Below, piece after piece: positions 13,138-41,741 of a DNA stretch of 41,741 nucleotides. The DNA lies in the IMG/VR virus record IMGVR_UViG_3300027719_000011; one strand, 5' to 3'. Under the pieces are notes generated by a model. The model had not been told where the DNA came from and did not search any database. It saw nothing but the letters and a program-made list of their open reading frames with translations. Each line of letters starts with the position of its first letter. The stretch's first letter is position 1. The stretch is from a virus. Position numbers and translations under genes: made by a program.

Positions 13138-13462
13138 AGTTGATTAGTGCCTGCAGTTCGTCAGACACCCCGGCGCAGGATTCAACAGCTGTGAATTGCT
13201 GAGTCGCTTCAGGTGTCTTGGAGGCTTCGACCCGTTCGCGGACAGTCACCAGCATACCTTCAGGGGAGTGACTGTACAACATCTCGATCTGGCTTGGTTT
13301 GAGACGGGTTTCGTGCAGGAACGCGACGAGGAGGGTCTGCTCCAGCGTTGTGGTGATGTCCTTAAACATCTTGAGGCTGGCTCGGACGACGGGATCTTCC
13401 GTGTTGGTCAGATCGCCAGTAACCTTCTGCTTCCAGGCTTTAAAAATGCGGGCTTCTTTCAT
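13127..13462 (-). CDS. Putative terminase small subunit, called by position
   Basis: This 111-aa ORF is the first gene after the late promoter and overlaps the terminase large subunit start by 11 nt. An AAGGAG RBS precedes it. I see no diagnostic motif. Confidence 0.35.
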   Translation of the reverse strand: MKEARIFKAWKQKVTGDLTNTEDPVVRASLKMFKDITTTLEQTLLVAFLHETRLKPSQIEMLYSHSPEGMLVTVRERVEASKTPEATQQFTAVESCAGVSDELQALINYGN

Positions 13463-13493
13463 ATTGGCTCCTTGTGTTTGTCATGTTAAGGTC

Positions 13494-13523
13494 ATTGTAG
13501 GTCGAACCCAGGTTACCGGTCAA
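13494..13523 (-). promoter_or_regulatory. Sigma70-like late-operon promoter
   Basis: The minus strand reads TTGACC (13518..13523), an 18-nt spacer, then TACAAT (13494..13499). This lies about 30 nt upstream of the AAGGAG RBS and ATG of ORF 13462. Confidence 0.5.
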
Positions 13524-13560
13524 GACGGTATTTTAGCTACGGGGTAGACCGGTATTTTAG
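13523..13560. repeat. Direct repeat AGAC(C)GGTATTTTAG, two copies, abutting the -35 of the late promoter
   Basis: The copies are at 13523..13536 and 13546..13560, read directly from the sequence. Confidence 0.6.
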
Positions 13561-14073
13561 TCGCGAGTCATTTAGACGCTATACGACCGCACATGTGCCC
13601 TCGACCCTACCCCTACCCCTCTCATCAACGTAATACAATGGCATACAATCGGCTGAAAAACGTAACACAAAGTAATAGGGTTTACATAATATCTATTATC
13701 AGGCCGTTTCAATCCTCGCAAATAGGCACGGTTGAGTCCTTGTTGCAAGGCACCATGAAATATTGCTGCAGGTGCTTACCAGATTCTGCGCTTTTATGCT
13801 GCAGTAGTATCATGGCGGCCAGGGTGCTTAGGAGGCTAGATGCCTTGTTCTAGTGGCTCTCGATTGCCGTTGCTCTCGGTAATCCGTTTAACCAGTGTCT
13901 TTGCGAGCTATAAAACGCGCAAAGCTACTGATATGCTATGGAGTCTATACTGGGGAAAATTTCCCTACCCTACATTATCCACCTGAGTAATAATTACCTT
14001 GTCTGCTCTCAACTATGCTATAAAGCTATTCTAGTCACAAACATTGGCAACCTGGCAGCCCGGAACAATTAGA

Positions 14074-14091
14074 TTGTGGTAAATTTACCAC
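14074..14091. promoter_or_regulatory. Perfect 18-bp palindrome TGTGGTAAATTTACCACA, a candidate protein-binding site
   Basis: It is read directly from the sequence. It lies in the ORF-free region between the early terminator and the late promoter. Confidence 0.4.
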
Positions 14092-14126
14092 ACATATAAA
14101 AATCCAGGTTGTCCAGGTAGCGCAAA

Positions 14127-14165
14127 ACAAAAGGGACAATACTAATAATGTATTGTCCCTTTTGT
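14127..14165 (-). terminator. Rho-independent terminator ending the minus-strand early operon
   Basis: A perfect 15-bp stem pairs 14127..14141 with 14151..14165 around a 9-nt loop. On the minus strand the GC core is followed by UUUUGUUUUG. Confidence 0.75.
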
Positions 14166-14187
14166 GGCCTAATTACTTTAAAACTCC

Positions 14188-14322
14188 TTAATCTTTTGCT
14201 TGCTCTAAGATCTGCTTTGCCAAGTTTGCGTACTCTTCAGCCTTAACTGTATCGCCTCTCTCAACCGCACGTTCCATACATGCAAGACAAGTGTCTAATA
14301 ACGCTGCTAGAATATTGTTCAT
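14188..14322 (-). CDS. Small hypothetical protein (44 aa, below the ORF-track cutoff)
   Basis: My hand translation is MNNILAALLDTCLACMERAVERGDTVKAEEYANLAKQILEQAKD. Its ATG lies 3 nt after the stop of ORF 14326..14625, and the terminator follows it. Confidence 0.35.
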   Translation of the reverse strand: MNNILAALLDTCLACMERAVERGDTVKAEEYANLAKQILEQAKD

Positions 14323-14325
14323 AGT

Positions 14326-14625
14326 TTATTTGCCTTTCCATGGTAGCTTTGTGCTATCTATAAATTCGCCTTTTAACTTGCAAGTTTTTACTATGCCTTT
14401 AAGCGTAGGCATGGCGGCATTAACGCAATCAATACAGCCTATGCTGTTCGGCAGAATGCCTTTTTCCATTTGGAACCAACCTATTCTGCTTTGATCAAGA
14501 AACGCATGGCAATATCTGCATTGTATGTATTGTTGCGCGATGAATTGCGCTGATATCATTTTATCTGCTATACCCGGCTCCAATTTGTTCAACAAAACTT
14601 TTCCGACAATTGTTTCTGTTTTCAT
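14326..14625 (-). CDS. Hypothetical Cys-rich protein, possible Zn-binding
   Basis: It is 99 aa with CRYCH ... CIDC. It lies in the AT-rich island. Confidence 0.45.
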   Translation of the reverse strand: MKTETIVGKVLLNKLEPGIADKMISAQFIAQQYIQCRYCHAFLDQSRIGWFQMEKGILPNSIGCIDCVNAAMPTLKGIVKTCKLKGEFIDSTKLPWKGK

Positions 14626-14640
14626 TTTTAAAACTCCTCT

Positions 14641-15249
14641 TCAATGTTTCCGGAATAGGATTGTAGGGTATCGATTGTTACTACTGCAGATACTGCAGAT
14701 TTTGCAATCCCCGGGGCAAACAATAGCATTCTGTAATATCTTTGGTTCTTCGTGCTTGCCAATTACTTTACTTGCCCTTACAAAAGTCTTACTGACTTTG
14801 ATTGCCTGCTTGCAGCTTGTTTCGTCGAGCGAAAAAATCAGCCTGACATTATCAAGACTTTGCAGGCCTGAAAAATTAAACTGGTAAGAACGGGTATAAG
14901 CATAGAAGATAATCCCGGGAAATGTTTCTGCAATCGCTTGCCAGTCATTTATATATTTTTGGCTGTAAAAGTCCCCGCTCTCATGAATTCTGACTTTGTT
15001 GATTTTGCCCTTGCTCACTAGCAAAGCTATTTCATTAACCATTTGGGGAACAAAGTTTTTGTTTTTGCTATCTTTCAAGCTTTCTTGCCTATGGTTCAAT
15101 ACTCCTCTATAAATTCTCTCTGCTTTTCTCGCATAGCAATAAGCTTTGCATGCGCTTGTTGCGCCCGGGCATGTTTCAATAGCCGGTAGATTGAATATGC
15201 CTGTAGTTTTTGGGAGTTTTCTATTCCCTAATGTTAAAAGATTTTTCAT
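14641..15249 (-). CDS. GP88-family-like Cys-cluster protein, function unknown
   Basis: The N-terminus (LGNRKLPKTTGIFNLPAIETCPGATSACKAYCYARKA), IHESGDFYSQKYINDW, FYAYTRS and a C-terminal CPGDCKICSIC fit the pattern I remember for Pfam GP88 phage proteins. Confidence 0.55.
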   Translation of the reverse strand: MKNLLTLGNRKLPKTTGIFNLPAIETCPGATSACKAYCYARKAERIYRGVLNHRQESLKDSKNKNFVPQMVNEIALLVSKGKINKVRIHESGDFYSQKYINDWQAIAETFPGIIFYAYTRSYQFNFSGLQSLDNVRLIFSLDETSCKQAIKVSKTFVRASKVIGKHEEPKILQNAIVCPGDCKICSICSSNNRYPTILFRKH

Positions 15250-15255
15250 AATGTT

Positions 15256-15555
15256 TTACCTTCTTCCCCAAAAGGGATTGTTCAAGTCTTCGTTCACACC
15301 ATAGAACGTGTAGCTGTCATAGTTTCTAATCCGCGACCGTTTATTACCGCAAAATTCTTGATATTCAATCGTCTTACCTGCTGTTATCATCGCGGATTGA
15401 AACAAAGATAAATCACAATCTTCCTCAAGAAAAGCAAAGTTACCATGCCTATACGAAAACGAGCTAATTTTGTCTGCAATGCCAAGCTTTACAAGCAATT
15501 TAATAGATACTTTTCCCCATGCATGCCCCGGATCGGCATATACTTGAATTTTCAT
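15256..15555 (-). CDS. Hypothetical conserved phage/plasmid-type small protein
   Basis: It is 99 aa and contains ADPGHAWGKVSIKLL...SYRHGNFAFLEEDCD. I recall this pattern from mobile-element proteins but cannot name the family. Confidence 0.45.
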   Translation of the reverse strand: MKIQVYADPGHAWGKVSIKLLVKLGIADKISSFSYRHGNFAFLEEDCDLSLFQSAMITAGKTIEYQEFCGNKRSRIRNYDSYTFYGVNEDLNNPFWGRR

Positions 15556-15679
15556 TTTTGATACTCCTTCAATAATTTGTAAATCGCTGCCAGTTCTTTA
15601 ATGTTTCTTTGTATCGGATTATGATACTGCAGGCCATGTAAACGTAAATTACGCCAGACTCTTTTGAATTCTATTCTGT

Positions 15680-16168
15680 TCATAACAGACCATTTTCCCG
15701 GAATGAGAAGTACCCTACTTCTCCCCCAGCAATGATTACGTGGTCTATAAAACGGATATCCATGATATCCGCTGCGCGTGCTATGGCCTTAGTGATTACA
15801 ATATCAGCGTTGGACGGGCGTAGTTGTCCAGCTGGGTGGTTATGAACTACAAGCACGCCCGTTGCGTAGCCTAATAACGCTTTGCGGATTATATTCTTTG
15901 GATAAACTGCAGTTTGGTCTTCTATGCCCTCACTTAGTATCTCTTCTTGCATAATCCTATTCTCATTGTTCAAATAAAATACTCTCAGTTGTTCCGTTGG
16001 TAATAGCATCATGTTAAGTCTGAGGTAATCAATAAAAGCACTTGCTGTCTGTATGGACGGTTTCAAGTGCTGCAAGCGTGCTACGTCCTGAGCACCCTTT
16101 AATATCTCGGCTTTGCTTGCCTGTCTATACTCCCCTGCGTTTTCCCTTACAAATAGTTGATGTTTCAT
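15680..16168 (-). CDS. radC: RadC-like JAB/MPN metalloprotease-domain protein
   Basis: The JAMM motif is intact (HNHPAGQLRPSNAD, i.e. HxH-x7-S-xx-D). The upstream region is RadC-like (EDQTAVYPKNIIRKALL). An AAGGAG RBS precedes it. Confidence 0.85.
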   Translation of the reverse strand: MKHQLFVRENAGEYRQASKAEILKGAQDVARLQHLKPSIQTASAFIDYLRLNMMLLPTEQLRVFYLNNENRIMQEEILSEGIEDQTAVYPKNIIRKALLGYATGVLVVHNHPAGQLRPSNADIVITKAIARAADIMDIRFIDHVIIAGGEVGYFSFRENGLL

Positions 16169-16172
16169 AGTT

Positions 16173-16304
16173 TTAACTCCTTACTACTTTAAGACTAGAC
16201 GTTTCAATGCCTAATGATGCAAGCCTGCAGATATACGAGCAGCCAGCCTGTAGACTATCAACTACCGCGAAAACCTCATTCTTTTTGCTTACTACTTTAT
16301 ACAT
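16173..16304 (-). CDS. Possible 43-aa leader ORF upstream of the RadC-like gene
   Basis: My hand translation is MYKVVSKKNEVFAVVDSLQAGCSYICRLASLGIETSSLKVVRS. An AGGAG sits 9 nt upstream of its ATG. Its last codons contain the RBS of the RadC-like gene. Confidence 0.3.
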   Translation of the reverse strand: MYKVVSKKNEVFAVVDSLQAGCSYICRLASLGIETSSLKVVRS

Positions 16305-16351
16305 GTTATTTTCTCCTGCGTTTTTGTTTTTGTTTTTGTTCTTATGTATTC

Positions 16352-16380
16352 AATATACTTATAAACGCTTACAATGTCAA
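16352..16380 (-). promoter_or_regulatory. Sigma70-like promoter for the AT-rich RadC island
   Basis: The minus strand reads TTGACA (16375..16380), a 17-nt spacer, then TATATT (16352..16357). The -35 is embedded in CGCTTGACATTGTAAGCG (16366..16383). Confidence 0.55.
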
Positions 16381-16575
16381 GCGATTTGGTTTTTTATTTT
16401 ACCAGATAATCTACACCGATCGGCCAAGTAACTTTTATCATTTCGTTGCTTTGGTAATATAGTCGCAGCGCAGCTTTGCCGATAAATTACCCTACCAGGC
16501 CTATGCACATCAGACTGGCCTGGAACGCGCACGCGCATGTGAGATCGCGTACCTCAAGAATAAGGGATTATAAGT

Positions 16576-16656
16576 ATCCACCAGTGCACAGATAGAAAAA
16601 TGCACCAGTGCCTGGATAGAAAAATCCACCAGTGTCTCTTTGGAAAAACTGGTGGA
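16576..16656. repeat. Three head-to-tail 24-bp iterons plus one inverted core
   Basis: The units are 16577..16600 (tccaccagtgcacagatagaaaaa), 16601..16624 (tgcaccagtgcctggatagaaaaa) and 16625..16648 (tccaccagtgtctctttggaaaaa). They are followed by ctggtgga (16649..16656), the reverse complement of the core. Confidence 0.85.
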
Positions 16657-16681
16657 TCTTCTTGGCCTGAAGCGGGTTGGG

Positions 16682-16894
16682 CTATTTTGGTAGCAAGCCT
16701 CCCTGTGACCAAACATGATCTAGGTAATACTCCACAGCGGCTTGAGCCAGTTCTGACGGAGACACATTTTCTACAATGGCGGCGAGGCGTAAGTCCTTCA
16801 TGGTGCCTATCCCCAACTGAACTACAGCCTCTTCCGGGGTTAATTTTCTGCCTATCTCGGCCTTCAAGAGCTTGTTTCTGTGGGTGTCTCTCAT
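16682..16894 (-). CDS. Ribbon-helix-helix (CopG/Arc-like) DNA-binding protein, paralogue 2
   Basis: It is 70 aa. LRLAAIVENVSPSELAQAAVEYYL parallels the upstream paralogue. Its start overlaps the stop of that gene. Confidence 0.6.
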   Translation of the reverse strand: MRDTHRNKLLKAEIGRKLTPEEAVVQLGIGTMKDLRLAAIVENVSPSELAQAAVEYYLDHVWSQGGLLPK

Positions 16895-17097
16895 TTGCTA
16901 CCCCCCAGAGATGTTACCAGCGCATCGCGCACCCACTCCGACACACTGACGTTCTCGCAGATTGCAGCCATATGCACTGCATCAAGCAGCTTCTTGCTCA
17001 CCGAGACCGCCAGGGTCTTGTTCAACACCAAGTCGGGGGCAACCTTCCTCTTCGTCACACGAAACATTTCTTCCATCGTTGATCTCCTTTTTGTCAA
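16891..17097 (-). CDS. Ribbon-helix-helix (CopG/Arc-like) DNA-binding protein, paralogue 1
   Basis: It is 68 aa. LAVSVSKKLLDAVHMAAICENVSVSEWVRDALVTSL fits the RHH beta-strand plus two-helix pattern. An AAGGAG RBS precedes it. Confidence 0.6.
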   Translation of the reverse strand: MTKRRSTMEEMFRVTKRKVAPDLVLNKTLAVSVSKKLLDAVHMAAICENVSVSEWVRDALVTSLGGSK

Positions 17098-22954: not shown

Positions 22955-22983
22955 TTGACATATAAGCGAACATCGATTATGAT
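22955..22983 (+). promoter_or_regulatory. Rightward early promoter
   Basis: It reads TTGACA (22955..22960), a 17-nt spacer, then TATGAT (22978..22983). The -35 is embedded in the 7-bp-arm inverted repeat TTCGCTT-gacatat-AAGCGAA (22950..22970). Confidence 0.7.
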
Positions 22984-24182: not shown

Positions 24183-25065
24183 GGGCAAAACTAGAATCCT
24201 GGCAGCTACAGCAACGGCAGGCGCAACCTCTTGAAATCAAAGAGCAACTGACGGCCAACCGTATCAAAGCCTACTATGAGCGGCTTGACGGCGAAGTCTA
24301 CATCAGCTTTAGTGGGGCAAGGATTCTACGGTTTTGTTACACCAAGTTCGCAGGATGTATCCGCATGTGCCAGCGGTGTTTGTAGACACAGGTCTGGAAT
24401 ACCCTGAGATCCGAGAGTTCGTAAGAACAATTGATAACGTAATTTGGCTGAAGCCGAAGATACCTTTCCCCCGAGTCATCGAAGAACACGGCTACCCGGT
24501 GATAAGCAAAGAAGTGTCCCAGAAGATAAAAGAAATCCAGACAACCAAAAGCGAGATATTGAGAAATATTCGGTTGAATGGGGACTTAAAAGGTAATGGG
24601 AAAATTTCTGAAAAATGGAAGTTCCTGGTCGATGCGCCTTTTAAAATTTCTGATCGCTGTTGCCACATTATGAAGAAAGCTCCGGTGAAACAATATGAAA
24701 AGGAGACGGGTAAGGGGGCTATAGTCGGAACTATGGCAGCGGACTCAAATCTTAGAAGACAATCTTATTTACAATACGGGTGTAACTCCTTCGGAGATAG
24801 ACCTATGTCCACTCCTATGGCTATCTGGCTTGAGGAGGACATCTGGGCCTACATCAAGAAGTACAATCTTCCTTACTCTAAGATTTACGATATGGGTTAC
24901 ACTCGAACAGGCTGCATGTTCTGTATGTTTGGGGTTCATTTGGAGCCTGACAGCCGATTTGAACGCATGAAGATCACGCATCCTCAGATTTATAATTACT
25001 GTATGGACAAATTGGGATTGCGTGAAGTACTTCGCTACTGTGGCTTTGAACCCCCGAAAGAGTAA
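24179..25065 (+). pseudogene. PAPS-reductase-family (PP-loop ATPase) gene interrupted by a 1-nt frame change at the G4 run 24314..24317
   Basis: Frame A ends ...DGEVYISFSG and then goes out of frame. Frame B continues KDSTVLLHQVRRMYPHVPAVFVDTGLEYPEIREFV. Joined, they restore the canonical SFSGGKDSTV and DTG..YPE motifs. The C-terminus has TRTGCMFCMFG. Confidence 0.75.
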
Positions 25066-27842: not shown

Positions 27843-28463
27843 ATGAGCAGTGTAGAAGATCGTCAGAAATATCACACAGAGTATAGGCGCAAGAATCGGG
27901 AGAGTCTGAGAGCAAAAAATAGGCTCATAAGAATAAAGAAAAAAGAAGCAGGATTTTGCCAAACTTGCGGTTGGGGGGTTCCAGTAGTCCCGGGCAAAAC
28001 TATGTGCGAGAAGCACTTAGAAGCTCGGAAAAGTCGCCGAGGGAAGAAGACCAAAACTTGGCAAAAAAATGGTATGTGTGCCCATTGTGGCCAGTTTCCA
28101 GCAGTAGAAGGTAAAAGATCCTGCGAACGTTGTTTGATATACGGGAGCCGAGGAGTAAGGGAACGAGGAGCGGCAGGTAAGCGCAAAATCGTGGCATATC
28201 TCGGAGGCAAGTGCCAGAGATGTGGGCTTGTTACGGATTGTATGCCCGTATACGAAATCCACCATCTAAGCAAAAAGAATAAAGACTTCAATATGAAAAC
28301 TATCCAAAGCTGGTCTTGGGAGACGATTTTAACCGAACTGAACAAAGGGGTTCAGCTTCTATGTGCGAACTGTCATAGGATTATCCAGCATAACCACGAA
28401 GAAAATTGGGCCAACAAGACTTTGCCGATAGGGCCAAGATCAAAAGATAGGGAGAACAAATGA
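27843..28463 (+). CDS. HNH endonuclease with N-terminal Cys-rich repeats
   Basis: The HNH core is GGKCQRCG...YEIHHL...LLCANCHR. The N-terminus has repeated CxxC pairs (CQTCG, CEKH, CAHCG, CERC). It has an AAGGAG RBS and an ATGA overlap with the polymerase gene. Confidence 0.85.
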   Translation: MSSVEDRQKYHTEYRRKNRESLRAKNRLIRIKKKEAGFCQTCGWGVPVVPGKTMCEKHLEARKSRRGKKTKTWQKNGMCAHCGQFPAVEGKRSCERCLIYGSRGVRERGAAGKRKIVAYLGGKCQRCGLVTDCMPVYEIHHLSKKNKDFNMKTIQSWSWETILTELNKGVQLLCANCHRIIQHNHEENWANKTLPIGPRSKDRENK

Positions 28464-32665: not shown

Positions 32666-32700
32666 TAAAAAACCCCTCCAGTTACGGAGGGGTTTTTGTT
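32666..32700. terminator. Bidirectional rho-independent terminator between the convergent operons
   Basis: An A-tract is followed by CCCCTCC (32673..32679), a 6-nt loop, GGAGGGG (32686..32692) and TTTTT. Confidence 0.8.
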
Positions 32701-40249: not shown

Positions 40250-41640
40250 TATTGTTCTCCCTCGATGTCAAGTTCCGCGCCTACAAAAGCAAATGGAGCC
40301 ACATCAGTCTGACAAAATTCAAACTGGCGGGTCTTTGCCCTGCCCAAACGGTGAAGCTCGACCACGTTGTTATACTCGCCCATCTTGTTGAGGGAAATGT
40401 AATGCTCATTCGACCAGCCTTTATTCTGATCGCGCCATCGCACCCAAAACTTCGGCTCGGTAATGTCAGTGACATACCCCCGCTTGGCTCGGATCTGCAA
40501 CTGCCGCATAAGCTTCCACACGTAAGTGCCGAAGCTCAAGTGAGATGTACGCAGACAGAATCGCGCATCTGTGGCCTCTCCGGTGATCGAGTAAACCTTA
40601 CCATCAAAGCCGATTGCCAGATAGCGGTTAAGCTCGGGAGAGAAAGTAACTGAGTGAATAGGCCACGGTTTGTAGGTGGCAACTGTCGAATCCCACTGGC
40701 CCCACTGATACCAAGCGTCCAGCACATAGTCGTAAACCAGACTGGTGCCGGTAGCAAATGAGGACAGCAGAATAAAATGCTGGTTGAGATACTGGAACGG
40801 GCTGCACACCAGGTCATCAACCGAAGCCAGTTCCCGCAGTATGCGGTTCACTGGCCCCGAAACGACTTTGGGTGAGCGGCCATCAAGCCGAATAAACTGC
40901 CGTTCATGATCAAGCCAGAACCAGGTGTTGTCGAGCTTCATCAGCGAATACGGTGCAGAACACCCTCGCTCAATGAACGCCCCTTCCATGCGTCTGAATG
41001 TCGCAGGAGTTTCGCCCGAGTTGTACCAGATTTCGGTGCTGTGGGTACCGAGCAATACCAGCTCACGCCAACCTGCACCGATAGACACGATCTTGTCGAT
41101 CGAAGCATCTGCGTCGGCATAGTTGGTGCCACTCCAGACTGTCGAGCCTGCGTCAGTCCACCAGAATCTACCTGTACCGACTTCGTTCGCAATGATGTGC
41201 GAGTCGAGCCAGGTCAGATGCGAAACAACTGTAGGCGCGGCAATGTCAGTCAAGAAGTTGGCGGTAGTGCCGTTGGAGGAAACTATCTTACCCCCGGCGG
41301 CGAGATAAACCAAGCTGGTGTCTTCGGTGAACCTGGCAGGTTGATTGGACGGGATTACATCGCCGGTTGTAGCGGTAACTGTACCGGTTGAGTCGATAGT
41401 ATAGATGCGCCCATTACCCACAGCAACGAACTTCTGGAGAGTTATCGACCAGAAGATCCCCTGCACAGGTAGATCTATCGCACTGGCAGACCCGAACTGA
41501 GTAGTGCCGGGTCGCTTGAAGTAGGTGCCTTGCTCATCCTGATAACCGTCGATGAACGAGGCAGGAAGTGCCCCATCTATGGTGGCTTCATCAAGGGCAG
41601 GCCACGAACCTTTGCCAAATTCTAATTTGATTTTGGGCAT
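40249..41640 (-). CDS. Tail hub / nozzle protein (P22 gp10 / T7 gp12-like beta-propeller)
   Basis: GAGWRELVLLGTHSTEIWYNSG, HFILLSSFATGTSLVYDYVLDAWYQW and the C-terminus FAFVGAELDIE parallel P22 gp10 segments as I remember them (TWRDFIVCFGSSTIEYFSLTG, ELLIIHLPRHVLVYD, LSGCQIRLE). Confidence 0.6.
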   Translation of the reverse strand: MPKIKLEFGKGSWPALDEATIDGALPASFIDGYQDEQGTYFKRPGTTQFGSASAIDLPVQGIFWSITLQKFVAVGNGRIYTIDSTGTVTATTGDVIPSNQPARFTEDTSLVYLAAGGKIVSSNGTTANFLTDIAAPTVVSHLTWLDSHIIANEVGTGRFWWTDAGSTVWSGTNYADADASIDKIVSIGAGWRELVLLGTHSTEIWYNSGETPATFRRMEGAFIERGCSAPYSLMKLDNTWFWLDHERQFIRLDGRSPKVVSGPVNRILRELASVDDLVCSPFQYLNQHFILLSSFATGTSLVYDYVLDAWYQWGQWDSTVATYKPWPIHSVTFSPELNRYLAIGFDGKVYSITGEATDARFCLRTSHLSFGTYVWKLMRQLQIRAKRGYVTDITEPKFWVRWRDQNKGWSNEHYISLNKMGEYNNVVELHRLGRAKTRQFEFCQTDVAPFAFVGAELDIEGEQ

Positions 41641-41741
41641 CAGAACACCTCAAACATCATTTCGGTACCGGCCAGAACAATGTTGGCCAATTCTGCGCCG
41701 AGTGTGATTGACGAACTTGAGGTTTCAGTATAACCTGTGGC
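41615..41741. repeat. Terminal direct repeat, copy 2 (identical to 1..127)
   Basis: Direct comparison shows identity. Bases 41640..41741 duplicate the 3' end of ORF 26..514. Confidence 0.95.

Follow-up and report, generated by a model that had tools for sequence, protein, structure and literature searches.

The element described here is a compact, AT-rich cassette of seven genes occupying positions 14188–16383 of the window, i.e. of the whole stretch of 41,741 nucleotides that was analysed and that corresponds to the IMG/VR virus record IMGVR_UViG_3300027719_000011. With a probability of roughly one half, this cassette is a horizontally acquired operon of the moron type, with its own sigma-70 promoter and with a protein of the GP88 family as its hub, serving in the protection or processing of DNA at the onset of infection. 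Its seven open reading frames (ORFs)—the mini-ORF orf43a, a RadC-like JAB protein, the mini-ORF orf43b, a protein with a DPGH motif (hereafter DPGH), the GP88 protein, a CxxC...CxxC protein (hereafter CxxC99) and the mini-ORF orf44—are all located on the minus strand, tightly packed or overlapping, each with an AGGAG-like ribosome-binding site, and ATGA stop/start overlaps are present at the RadC/orf43b and orf43b/DPGH junctions. A preliminary description, made by a model from the letters of the window, had counted one ORF fewer in its text and two fewer in its title. Coordinates of all the features are collected in Table 1.

Concerning the base composition, the GC content of the segment 14188–16383 is 39.5%, i.e. 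12.5 points under that of the remainder of the genome (52.0%), and it is the lowest among all the equal-length windows (mean 51.3%, standard deviation 3.5), lying approximately 3.4 standard deviations below the mean, with the next-lowest non-overlapping one having 45.5%. The GC content at the third codon position ranges from 0.36 to 0.42 in the seven genes of the cassette and from 0.51 to 0.67 in eight genes of the backbone. The AT-richness proposed in the preliminary description is thus borne out, its hand count of about 37% having been slightly low although the contrast itself is real. A low GC content as a general property of these gene families was considered and rejected, since the pairs formed elsewhere by the GP88, RadC and DPGH genes carry the GC content of their own genomes, from 27% to 67%; the low value seen in the window therefore marks a recent acquisition.

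The second line of evidence comes from the transcription signals, the promoter being situated at the high-coordinate end of the island because all the genes are on the minus strand. Only two sites in the genome agree with the sigma-70 consensus in at least 11 of the 12 positions, against 0.43 expected from shuffled sequences. The second of them, TTGACA-17-TATGAT at 22955–22983 (plus strand), lies in a divergent region and heads the rightward replication operon, which points to a start of the infection programme from two promoters used by the host polymerase. At the opposite end, the terminator had been called the strongest one in the genome; it does possess a perfect stem and a very favourable folding energy (Table 1), but its rank depends on the measure used, since in a uniform 48-nt scan of the genome it takes the fourth place (−18.0), after the site at 16624 on the minus strand and the pair at 32672/32693. 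It is present at the island end as had been claimed, but about 25 nt outside the boundary at 14188, and it is potentially bidirectional because of the A-run upstream and the T-run downstream. Together with the hairpin at 16621–16660, found directly after the gene for a ribbon-helix-helix (RHH)-like protein at 16682–16894, it leaves the cassette insulated on both sides.

Both signals are recognisable in L057, a 2.6-kb contig from another sample (Logan SRR29063591) representing a fragment of a sister phage, which aligns with the window at the upstream repeat array, the promoter, GP88 and the terminator. The −35 and −10 hexamers are identical to those of the window while the flanks diverge, and the terminator exhibits a compensatory change of A:T to G:C in the stem along with a different loop; that they are kept in this way amid diverging sequence is direct evidence, from comparison, of selection acting on both signals. 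It should be pointed out that their conservation is documented by this single contig, the promoter and terminator patterns having had no match in IMG/VR and the promoter pattern none in the metagenome contigs of JGI. Taken together, the GC content, the signals and their conservation in L057 agree with the earlier view of an AT-rich accessory unit equipped with a consensus promoter TTGACA-17-TATATT and a terminator of its own. As side observations, a palindrome CGCTT-N8-AAGCG at 16366–16383, identical in L057, extends over the −35 hexamer of the promoter; as a candidate binding site for a repressor, it could serve to turn the cassette off later in infection. Further upstream, the region 16569–16660 contains three direct repeats with a 24-bp spacing and the core CACTGGTG (minus strand), plus an inverted copy, the repeats forming the hairpin mentioned above; this array, conserved in L057, doubles as a terminator and may serve the two RHH-like proteins (16682–17097) as an operator or as iterons.

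The comparison with close relatives reveals an exchange of the cargo within this frame. In L057, three unrelated ORFs are followed by GP88 (88% identity), CxxC99 (48%) and orf44 (34%), so that RadC and DPGH are absent and the three other ORFs replace the set orf43a-RadC-orf43b-DPGH. The contigs L069/L070 show the order of a hydrophobic 43-aa ORF, RadC (49%), GP88 (66%) and CxxC (44–48%), with RadC abutting GP88 and orf43b missing in L069, and L071 has GP88 (79%) followed by CxxC99 (76%). The pair GP88-CxxC99 thus forms the constant core, since it is kept in L057, L069/L070 and L071 while the upstream genes are swapped; RadC is present in two of the three informative close lineages, and orf43b and DPGH of the window seem to have been inserted between RadC and GP88. 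A relative lacking the whole cassette was not found, the sister phage being represented by its 2.6-kb fragment. Since that sister phage contains neither RadC nor DPGH, and since the co-occurrences described below are rare, the seven genes do not constitute an obligate module.

With regard to the GP88 protein itself, it was matched to PF17338 with 135.1 bits (cut-off 24.4) and an E-value of 4e-39. It carries two cysteine clusters—a Cx6Cx3C motif after strand β1 (C27, C34 and C38) and the C-terminal CPGDCKICSIC (C178/182/185/188)—as well as an R-x-HESGD motif after strand β2. In an alignment of 60 homologues, all 60 of which match the Pfam family GP88, the residues C27, C34, C38, R87, H89, E90, S91, G92, D93, C178 and C188 are invariant and C185 is nearly so; the GP88-like character and the two cysteine clusters, both already recognised in the preliminary description, are therefore conserved features of the family. 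The latter covers 8,740 clusters at 50% identity (E-value of 1e-3 or better) and is characteristic of viruses (391 phage records versus 27 plasmid records). Exact-sequence look-ups of the GP88 and DPGH proteins of the window returned no record, a single-protein scan of IMG/VR yielded no close relative of either its GP88 or its RadC, alignment-based scans being needed, and no functional study of PF17338, gp88 or DUF5131 was found in the literature.

Canonical radical S-adenosylmethionine (SAM) enzymes bind a [4Fe-4S] cluster through a three-cysteine CX3CX2C motif in the loop after strand β1. The AlphaFold2 model of GP88 (predicted local distance difference test, pLDDT, 95) consists of six β-α units, i.e. 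a (β/α)6 arrangement, with β1 formed by residues 16–19. Its best Foldseek matches in the Protein Data Bank (PDB), among which radical SAM enzymes predominate, were BlsE, NifB, viperin and BioB (biotin synthase), with probabilities of 0.9–0.99, TsrM being a further one, and in BFVD the GP88 family itself was followed by a Gp37/Gp68-like protein (E-value 1.7e-8, TM-score 0.73) and then by radical SAM and Fe-S oxidoreductases (E-values from 1e-3 to 1e-2). Marginal scores were obtained among the 60 members for DUF7227 (five sequences), DUF5131 (two, 0.0065 or weaker) and Radical_SAM (one, E-value 0.13), the window protein having no match to PF04055 (Radical_SAM) or DUF5131 in Pfam; the canonical spacing of the cysteines is found in GP88 only at the C-terminal cluster (C178-x3-C182-x2-C185). 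DUF5131 is listed by RadicalSAM.org as a radical SAM subgroup placed in megacluster 5, beside spore photoproduct lyase (PMC9477430). Based on the confident fold model, the PDB and BFVD match lists and the marginal DUF5131 and Radical_SAM matches, GP88 is probably a radical-SAM-like enzyme of the Fe-S type with a relationship to DUF5131 (Gp37/Gp68), or it may be some other Zn- or Fe-S-containing triosephosphate isomerase (TIM) barrel. GP88-like domains were also seen inside viral proteins of about 1,000–1,200 residues in BFVD (A0A6J5RS77, A0A6J5PHI3, A0A6J5SA55 and A0A6J5RM19), and these may belong to the polyvalent proteins associated with functions in early conflict.

The RadC-like protein was assigned to PF04002 with 125.9 bits (cut-off 22.1; E-value 1e-36) over the profile positions 2–121 of 121, and to the PDB entry 2qlc with an E-value of 4e-20. 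Its segment HNHPAGQLRPSNAD represents an exact HxH-x7-S-x2-D (JAMM) motif, accompanied by an upstream Glu, and the residues E59/E76, H109, H111, S119 and D122 are invariant in a five-sequence alignment with RadCs from plasmids and phages, in accordance with the intact JAMM/MPN protein expected from the first reading. The full-length models NF000642 and TIGR00608 of NCBIfam remained below their cut-offs (122.5 versus 180 bits and 115.8 versus 133.85 bits, respectively) and were matched over their C-terminal halves only (positions 87–211 and 90–218), so that the protein is, as judged from these profiles, the short, mobile-element form without the N-terminal helix-hairpin-helix (HhH). The score against Prok-JAB (PF14464) was 17.1 bits, i.e. 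under the cut-off of 25, and that against the PADLOC JAB model 12 bits (E-value 0.039), which places it by profile score in the RadC clade and not in the Prok-JAB/Cap3-like one. RadC occurs in 2194 of 72,556 plasmids, 74% of these being conjugative, but in only 37 of 50,697 phage records; an IncF plasmid of E. coli exhibits the gene order antirestriction-RadC-DUF987-CbtA, which, along with the plasmid counts, supports the earlier statement that RadC-like JAB proteins are found near anti-restriction genes in mobile elements. A contextual analysis of RadC has favoured a nucleic-acid-processing role, has considered the RadC-type JAB domains to be probably without the groove for the ubiquitin tail, and has reported RadC and the ArdC/SprT-type peptidases as alternative fusion partners of ArdC-N (PMC5512222). 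Structurally, the RadC domains are closest to JAMM peptidases (PMC11981726).

The family of the DPGH protein comprises at least 438 homologues with a length of about 88 residues, none of them with a Pfam domain, and the window member itself has no match in Pfam, PHROGs or NCBIfam. The alignment of the family shows as invariant the residues D8, P9, H11 and W13, then E44, E45, D46 and D48, and finally S74. Homologues were found in 56 IMG/VR contigs, some of them belonging to genomes of more than 350 kb, and in only two GenBank phages, Limnohabitans phage DC31 and a Manatee Spring virus. The AlphaFold2 model (pLDDT 85) has no convincing fold match in the PDB (best E-value 0.02, TM-score 0.3), and the family profile has no meaningful match among the PDB sequences. 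The label ‘AmpD amidase’ attached by JGI to some members was disregarded as unsupported, and a role as a DNA mimic was rejected, because with 11 acidic versus 13 basic residues the protein is not acidic. As far as the remaining proteins are concerned, CxxC99 is a clade-specific orphan with two database matches and a zinc-ribbon-like CxxC...CxxC pattern; orf43a matched no family in Pfam, PHROGs or NCBIfam, and orf43a, orf43b and orf44 gave no informative matches.

Beyond the close relatives, the pairings of these genes recur. In the contig L166, which has 64% GC, GP88 directly precedes RadC, and that RadC is among those closest to the one in the window (55% identity). DPGH is located next to or near GP88 in L052, L137, the group L009/L002/L005 and L047, in both gene orders, which amounts to four or five lineages. 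GP88, DPGH and ArdC are contiguous in L052 (720–2505), and full ArdC homologues (ArdcN plus MPTase-PolyVal) are found near GP88 both there and in L163 (697–2663). Only through these two loci does the genomic context link these orphan families directly to an anti-restriction protein that has been characterised. Near SprT-like peptidases, GP88 was found in L058/L074, L099 and L101, which brings the lineages with GP88 near ArdC or SprT-type peptidases to about five. The phage MW202512 has, after RadC, a protein with an SprT-like annotation that was not confirmed by Pfam. Homologues of GP88 from gut and rumen phages have only unannotated neighbours and no conserved partner. By a rough estimate, which is not a test and which uses an assumed GP88 frequency of about 1e-4 to 5e-4 per phage gene, fewer than one GP88 would be expected among the approximately 1,100 genes flanking DPGH, versus the five loci observed, which come from three or four lineages. 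The preliminary description had regarded an absence of co-occurrence elsewhere as speaking against its proposal; this objection is not borne out, RadC having been found with GP88 in L069 and L166 and DPGH with GP88 in L052, L137, the L009 group and L047. GP88 is thus repeatedly, though not obligatorily, associated with RadC, DPGH and zincin peptidases.

According to the interpretation favoured here, the host RNA polymerase would transcribe the cassette upon entry of the DNA, independently of the late programme of the phage. GP88 is the evolutionary hub; it would be an Fe-S, radical-SAM-like enzyme, it travels with the clade-specific, putative zinc-ribbon protein CxxC99, and depending on the lineage it lies beside a zinc hydrolase (RadC here, an SprT-like or ArdC-type one elsewhere) and/or beside DPGH. 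At the beginning of infection, the products would act on nucleic acid or on proteins attached to it, protecting or processing the incoming phage DNA against the host defence, rather than taking part in the building of virions or in DNA replication. We infer such a role since RadC as well as ArdC and SprT typically occur in the leading regions of mobile elements, since ArdC is a genuine anti-restriction factor, and since none of the island genes is structural or replicative; a counter-defence or DNA-processing role is plausible from the genomic context only. It may further be hypothesised that RadC is functionally equivalent to the ArdC/SprT-type peptidases. Of the counter-defence or DNA-modification module envisaged in the preliminary description, the recurrence of the gene pairings stands, but the pairings are rare and not obligate, and no homology to anti-defence proteins accompanies them.

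Several points weigh against the interpretation just given. The PDB fold matches of GP88 are weak (E-values of about 1e-2, TM-scores of 0.35–0.43) and also include the Zn or Fe-S TIM barrels IspG, MmuM and MetE that are not radical SAM enzymes; the profile of GP88 has no meaningful match among the PDB sequences, and the spacing Cx6Cx3C differs from the canonical CX3CX2C. No known function is recorded for RadC, either in the contextual analysis (PMC5512222) or in a 2025 review (PMC11981726). The island proteins match no characterised anti-defence or anti-restriction family in Pfam, PHROGs, NCBIfam or PADLOC, with nothing above noise for any of them against the PADLOC models. In the broad samples of loci, RadC was found in 0 of 91 GP88 loci and 0 of 56 DPGH loci, GP88 in one of 80 RadC loci and five of 56 DPGH loci, and DPGH in one of 91 GP88 loci. 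Moreover, a common ancestry with the window is possible for several of the contigs cited in support. Finally, the early transcription would follow from a match to the promoter consensus and its conservation in one relative.

Table 1. Features of the cassette and of its borders, listed in the direction of transcription
Feature	Position	Strand	Basis or remark
Upstream insulator hairpin + T-run	16621..16660	-	Inverted repeat, dG -20.3, top terminator-like site in 48-nt genome scan
Sigma-70-type promoter TTGACA-17-TATATT	16352..16380	-	11/12 consensus positions
orf43a, 43 aa, first operon gene	16173..16304	-	AGGAG ribosome-binding site
RadC-like JAB, 162 aa, short form without N-terminal HhH	15680..16168	-	Pfam, PDB, motif
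orf43b, 43 aa	15552..15683	-	ATGA overlaps with RadC and DPGH; absent from L069
DPGH protein, 99 aa	15256..15555	-	Uncatalogued phage family, homologue alignment
GP88-family protein, 202 aa	14641..15249	-	Pfam GP88
CxxC99 (CxxC...CxxC), 99 aa, putative zinc ribbon	14326..14625	-	Directly downstream of GP88 in relatives
orf44, 44-aa helical mini-protein, last operon gene	14188..14322	-	Positional homologue in L057
Intrinsic terminator	14127..14165		Perfect 16-bp stem 14127-14142/14150-14165, 7-nt loop, dG -26.9 kcal/mol

As regards the genome that carries the cassette, its first and last 127 bases are identical (1–127 = 41615–41741, exact), and because of this exact terminal overlap the window is taken as a circularly closed complete phage genome of about 41.6 kb. 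It encodes the large terminase, a portal protein of the SU10 type and a major head protein, along with a replication set consisting of a family A DNA polymerase (PolA), a helicase, a primase-helicase, a PD-(D/E)XK nuclease and a deoxynucleoside monophosphate kinase; the window ORFs that were scanned included no gene for an integrase, a repressor or a partition protein. The phage is apparently lytic and podovirus-like. No close relative of the window was found among the GenBank phages, and the region 13400–16800 has no match to them at the level of DNA similarity. The cassette sits between the primase and two RHH-like genes on one side (19167–16682, minus strand) and the terS-like gene and terL on the other (13462–11344, minus strand).

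A few observations concern the other parts of this genome. Between the island terminator and the terS-like gene there is a 663-nt stretch without a convincing ORF (13463–14125), which folds only modestly better than its shuffled versions (z −2.6) and which contains a TTGACC-18-TACAAT site at 13523–13494 on the minus strand, just upstream of terS; a packaging site or a region of late promoters may be situated here. Neither in this spacer nor in the window was there a tRNA or an Rfam family, the sole Rfam match being that of the terminator hairpin to a model of a plastid 3′ untranslated region, below the threshold. A 23-nt match with 96% identity, in inverted relative orientation, links the region upstream of the L069 cassette (220–242) to this spacer downstream of the window cassette (13680–13702), and it could be due to chance or to a shared small motif. 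A second AT-rich dip (GC 0.42) coincides with a gene at 24334–25065 (plus strand) for a protein with a 3′-phosphoadenosine-5′-phosphosulfate (PAPS)-reductase domain (Pfam 3.5e-19, PHROG 424), for which PADLOC gave BrxP with 2e-10 and SspD with 8e-6; this could be another acquired gene tied to DNA modification or anti-defence. The HNH endonuclease gene at 27843–28463 (plus strand), flanked by the genes for the helicase and the DNA polymerase and located in an AT-rich stretch (GC 0.46), probably represents the insertion of a homing endonuclease.

The main rival explanation sees the locus as a ‘junk drawer’, i.e. a gap that tolerates recombination, separates the replication module from the packaging module and gathers unrelated small genes of an accessory or selfish nature, so that the seven genes share a promoter and have no common function. 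This is a possibility to be taken seriously, yet we hold it to be rather doubtful. It would account for the different content of the slot in the sister phage, where RadC and DPGH give way to three other ORFs, for the scarcity of RadC around GP88 and DPGH and of GP88 around RadC in the broad samples, and for the unrelated unknown ORFs that surround GP88 in gut and rumen phages, and the HNH endonuclease and PAPS-reductase-like genes are further AT-rich single-gene inserts in the same genome. It is at odds, however, with the retention of the pair GP88-CxxC99 in all four related contigs at 44–88% identity, with the ATGA overlaps, which suggest coupled translation, and with the adjacency of RadC and GP88 as well as of DPGH and GP88 across phages of 27–67% GC and in changed gene order, since a recurrence in compositionally distant phages with altered order is poorly explained by shared ancestry alone.

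Another explanation, which we regard as unlikely, is that of a module for DNA modification or repair, in which GP88, as an enzyme of the radical SAM type, would add a group to the phage DNA or remove it, or would repair lesions in the manner of spore photoproduct lyase, with RadC and the small proteins as its partners in processing or targeting. ArdC, which lies beside GP88-DPGH in L052, is an anti-restriction factor binding single-stranded DNA, and this neighbourhood is in line with such a module, as are the resemblance of the GP88 fold to radical SAM enzymes, the marginal link to DUF5131, itself found in megacluster 5 beside spore photoproduct lyase (PMC9477430), and the proposal of RadC as a nucleic-acid-processing domain (PMC5512222). 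The cassette, however, contains no glycosyltransferase, methyltransferase, nucleotide-biosynthesis or DpdA-like gene, GP88 is mostly found alone among unrelated ORFs, and its cysteine motif is non-canonical.

It is quite improbable that the cassette is a moron benefiting the bacterial host, expressed from a prophage and acting in superinfection exclusion or some other defence. Its architecture—a promoter, genes, a terminator and a deviant GC content—is the classic one, but the scanned ORFs include no integrase, repressor or partition gene, the replication set is of the lytic type, there are no PADLOC matches, and GP88 is typical of viruses; prophage expression of the moron kind is unlikely here because the phage looks lytic. 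The idea of RadC as a JAB isopeptidase removing ubiquitin-like conjugates (of the Bil type or the CBASS Cap2 type) from phage proteins, raised in the preliminary description, has the intact JAMM catalytic motif and the JAMM peptidases as structural kin (PMC11981726) in its favour, but is barely tenable in view of the RadC-clade scores (126 bits for RadC versus 17 for Prok-JAB and 12 for the PADLOC JAB model), of the probable lack of the ubiquitin-tail groove (PMC5512222) and of a cassette without any ubiquitin-like, E1 or E2 gene.

Returning to the acquired operon with GP88 as the hub, it belongs to an already known kind, that of phage morons or early accessory operons, and both RadC and GP88 are catalogued families; new are this combination of genes, the structural lead for GP88, and the DPGH family with its link to GP88. 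Few proteins without an assigned activity are as widespread in plasmids and genomic islands as RadC, GP88 is a very large virus-specific family, and DPGH stands outside Pfam. The locus offers as leads a compact natural operon joining these families, a directly testable structural hypothesis for GP88, and a pairing of GP88 with zinc hydrolases that suggests interchangeable partners. A more far-reaching proposal, made here as a long shot, is that GP88, as a minimal non-canonical enzyme of the radical SAM type, would together with interchangeable zinc hydrolases (RadC, SprT-like or ArdC-type) and DPGH form an unrecognised early phage system that alters or repairs the incoming DNA, or strips it of attached proteins, in order to evade the restriction or defence of the host. 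If true, this would provide the first biochemical role for GP88 with its approximately 8,700 clusters at 50% identity, for the RadC of mobile elements and for the uncatalogued DPGH. Should the leads hold, both the function of RadC and a new class of early phage enzymes would become accessible to study; should they fail, the locus would represent well-delimited mosaicism of the moron type in an uncultured phage of a freshwater type.

Compared with known systems, the cassette resembles several of them in part. Anti-restriction proteins of the ArdC type (an ArdcN domain that binds single-stranded DNA plus a zincin metallopeptidase) and SprT-like peptidases of early or leading regions occupy the same neighbourhoods of GP88, DPGH or RadC in other phages, whereas the window has no homologue of ArdC or SprT. 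The DUF5131 radical SAM subgroup is resembled by GP88 in the match of its model to the Gp37/Gp68-like protein and in the position of three cysteines after β1 and of an acidic or glycine motif after β2, where radical SAM cores have them too; GP88 differs by the spacing Cx6Cx3C and by having no Pfam match to DUF5131 or Radical_SAM. The short RadC/YeeS/YkfG JAB proteins of conjugative plasmids and islands, encoded there beside anti-restriction genes of the KlcA/ArdB type, have in common with the window RadC the Pfam family, the length of approximately 160 residues, the lack of the HhH, the intact JAMM motif and 37–40% identity, but the latter is found in a phage, upstream of GP88 and without adjacent KlcA/ArdB, DUF987 or CbtA. 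Phage morons are independent promoter-gene-terminator units of deviant base composition, first described in the lambdoid phages HK97 and HK022. The cassette is like them in having its own sigma-70-type promoter and intrinsic terminator, a deviant GC content, and a position between conserved modules (primase and RHH on one side, terS/terL on the other) with a content varying between sisters; unlike them, it comprises seven genes instead of one or two, and its slot and signals are conserved while the cargo is swapped in part.

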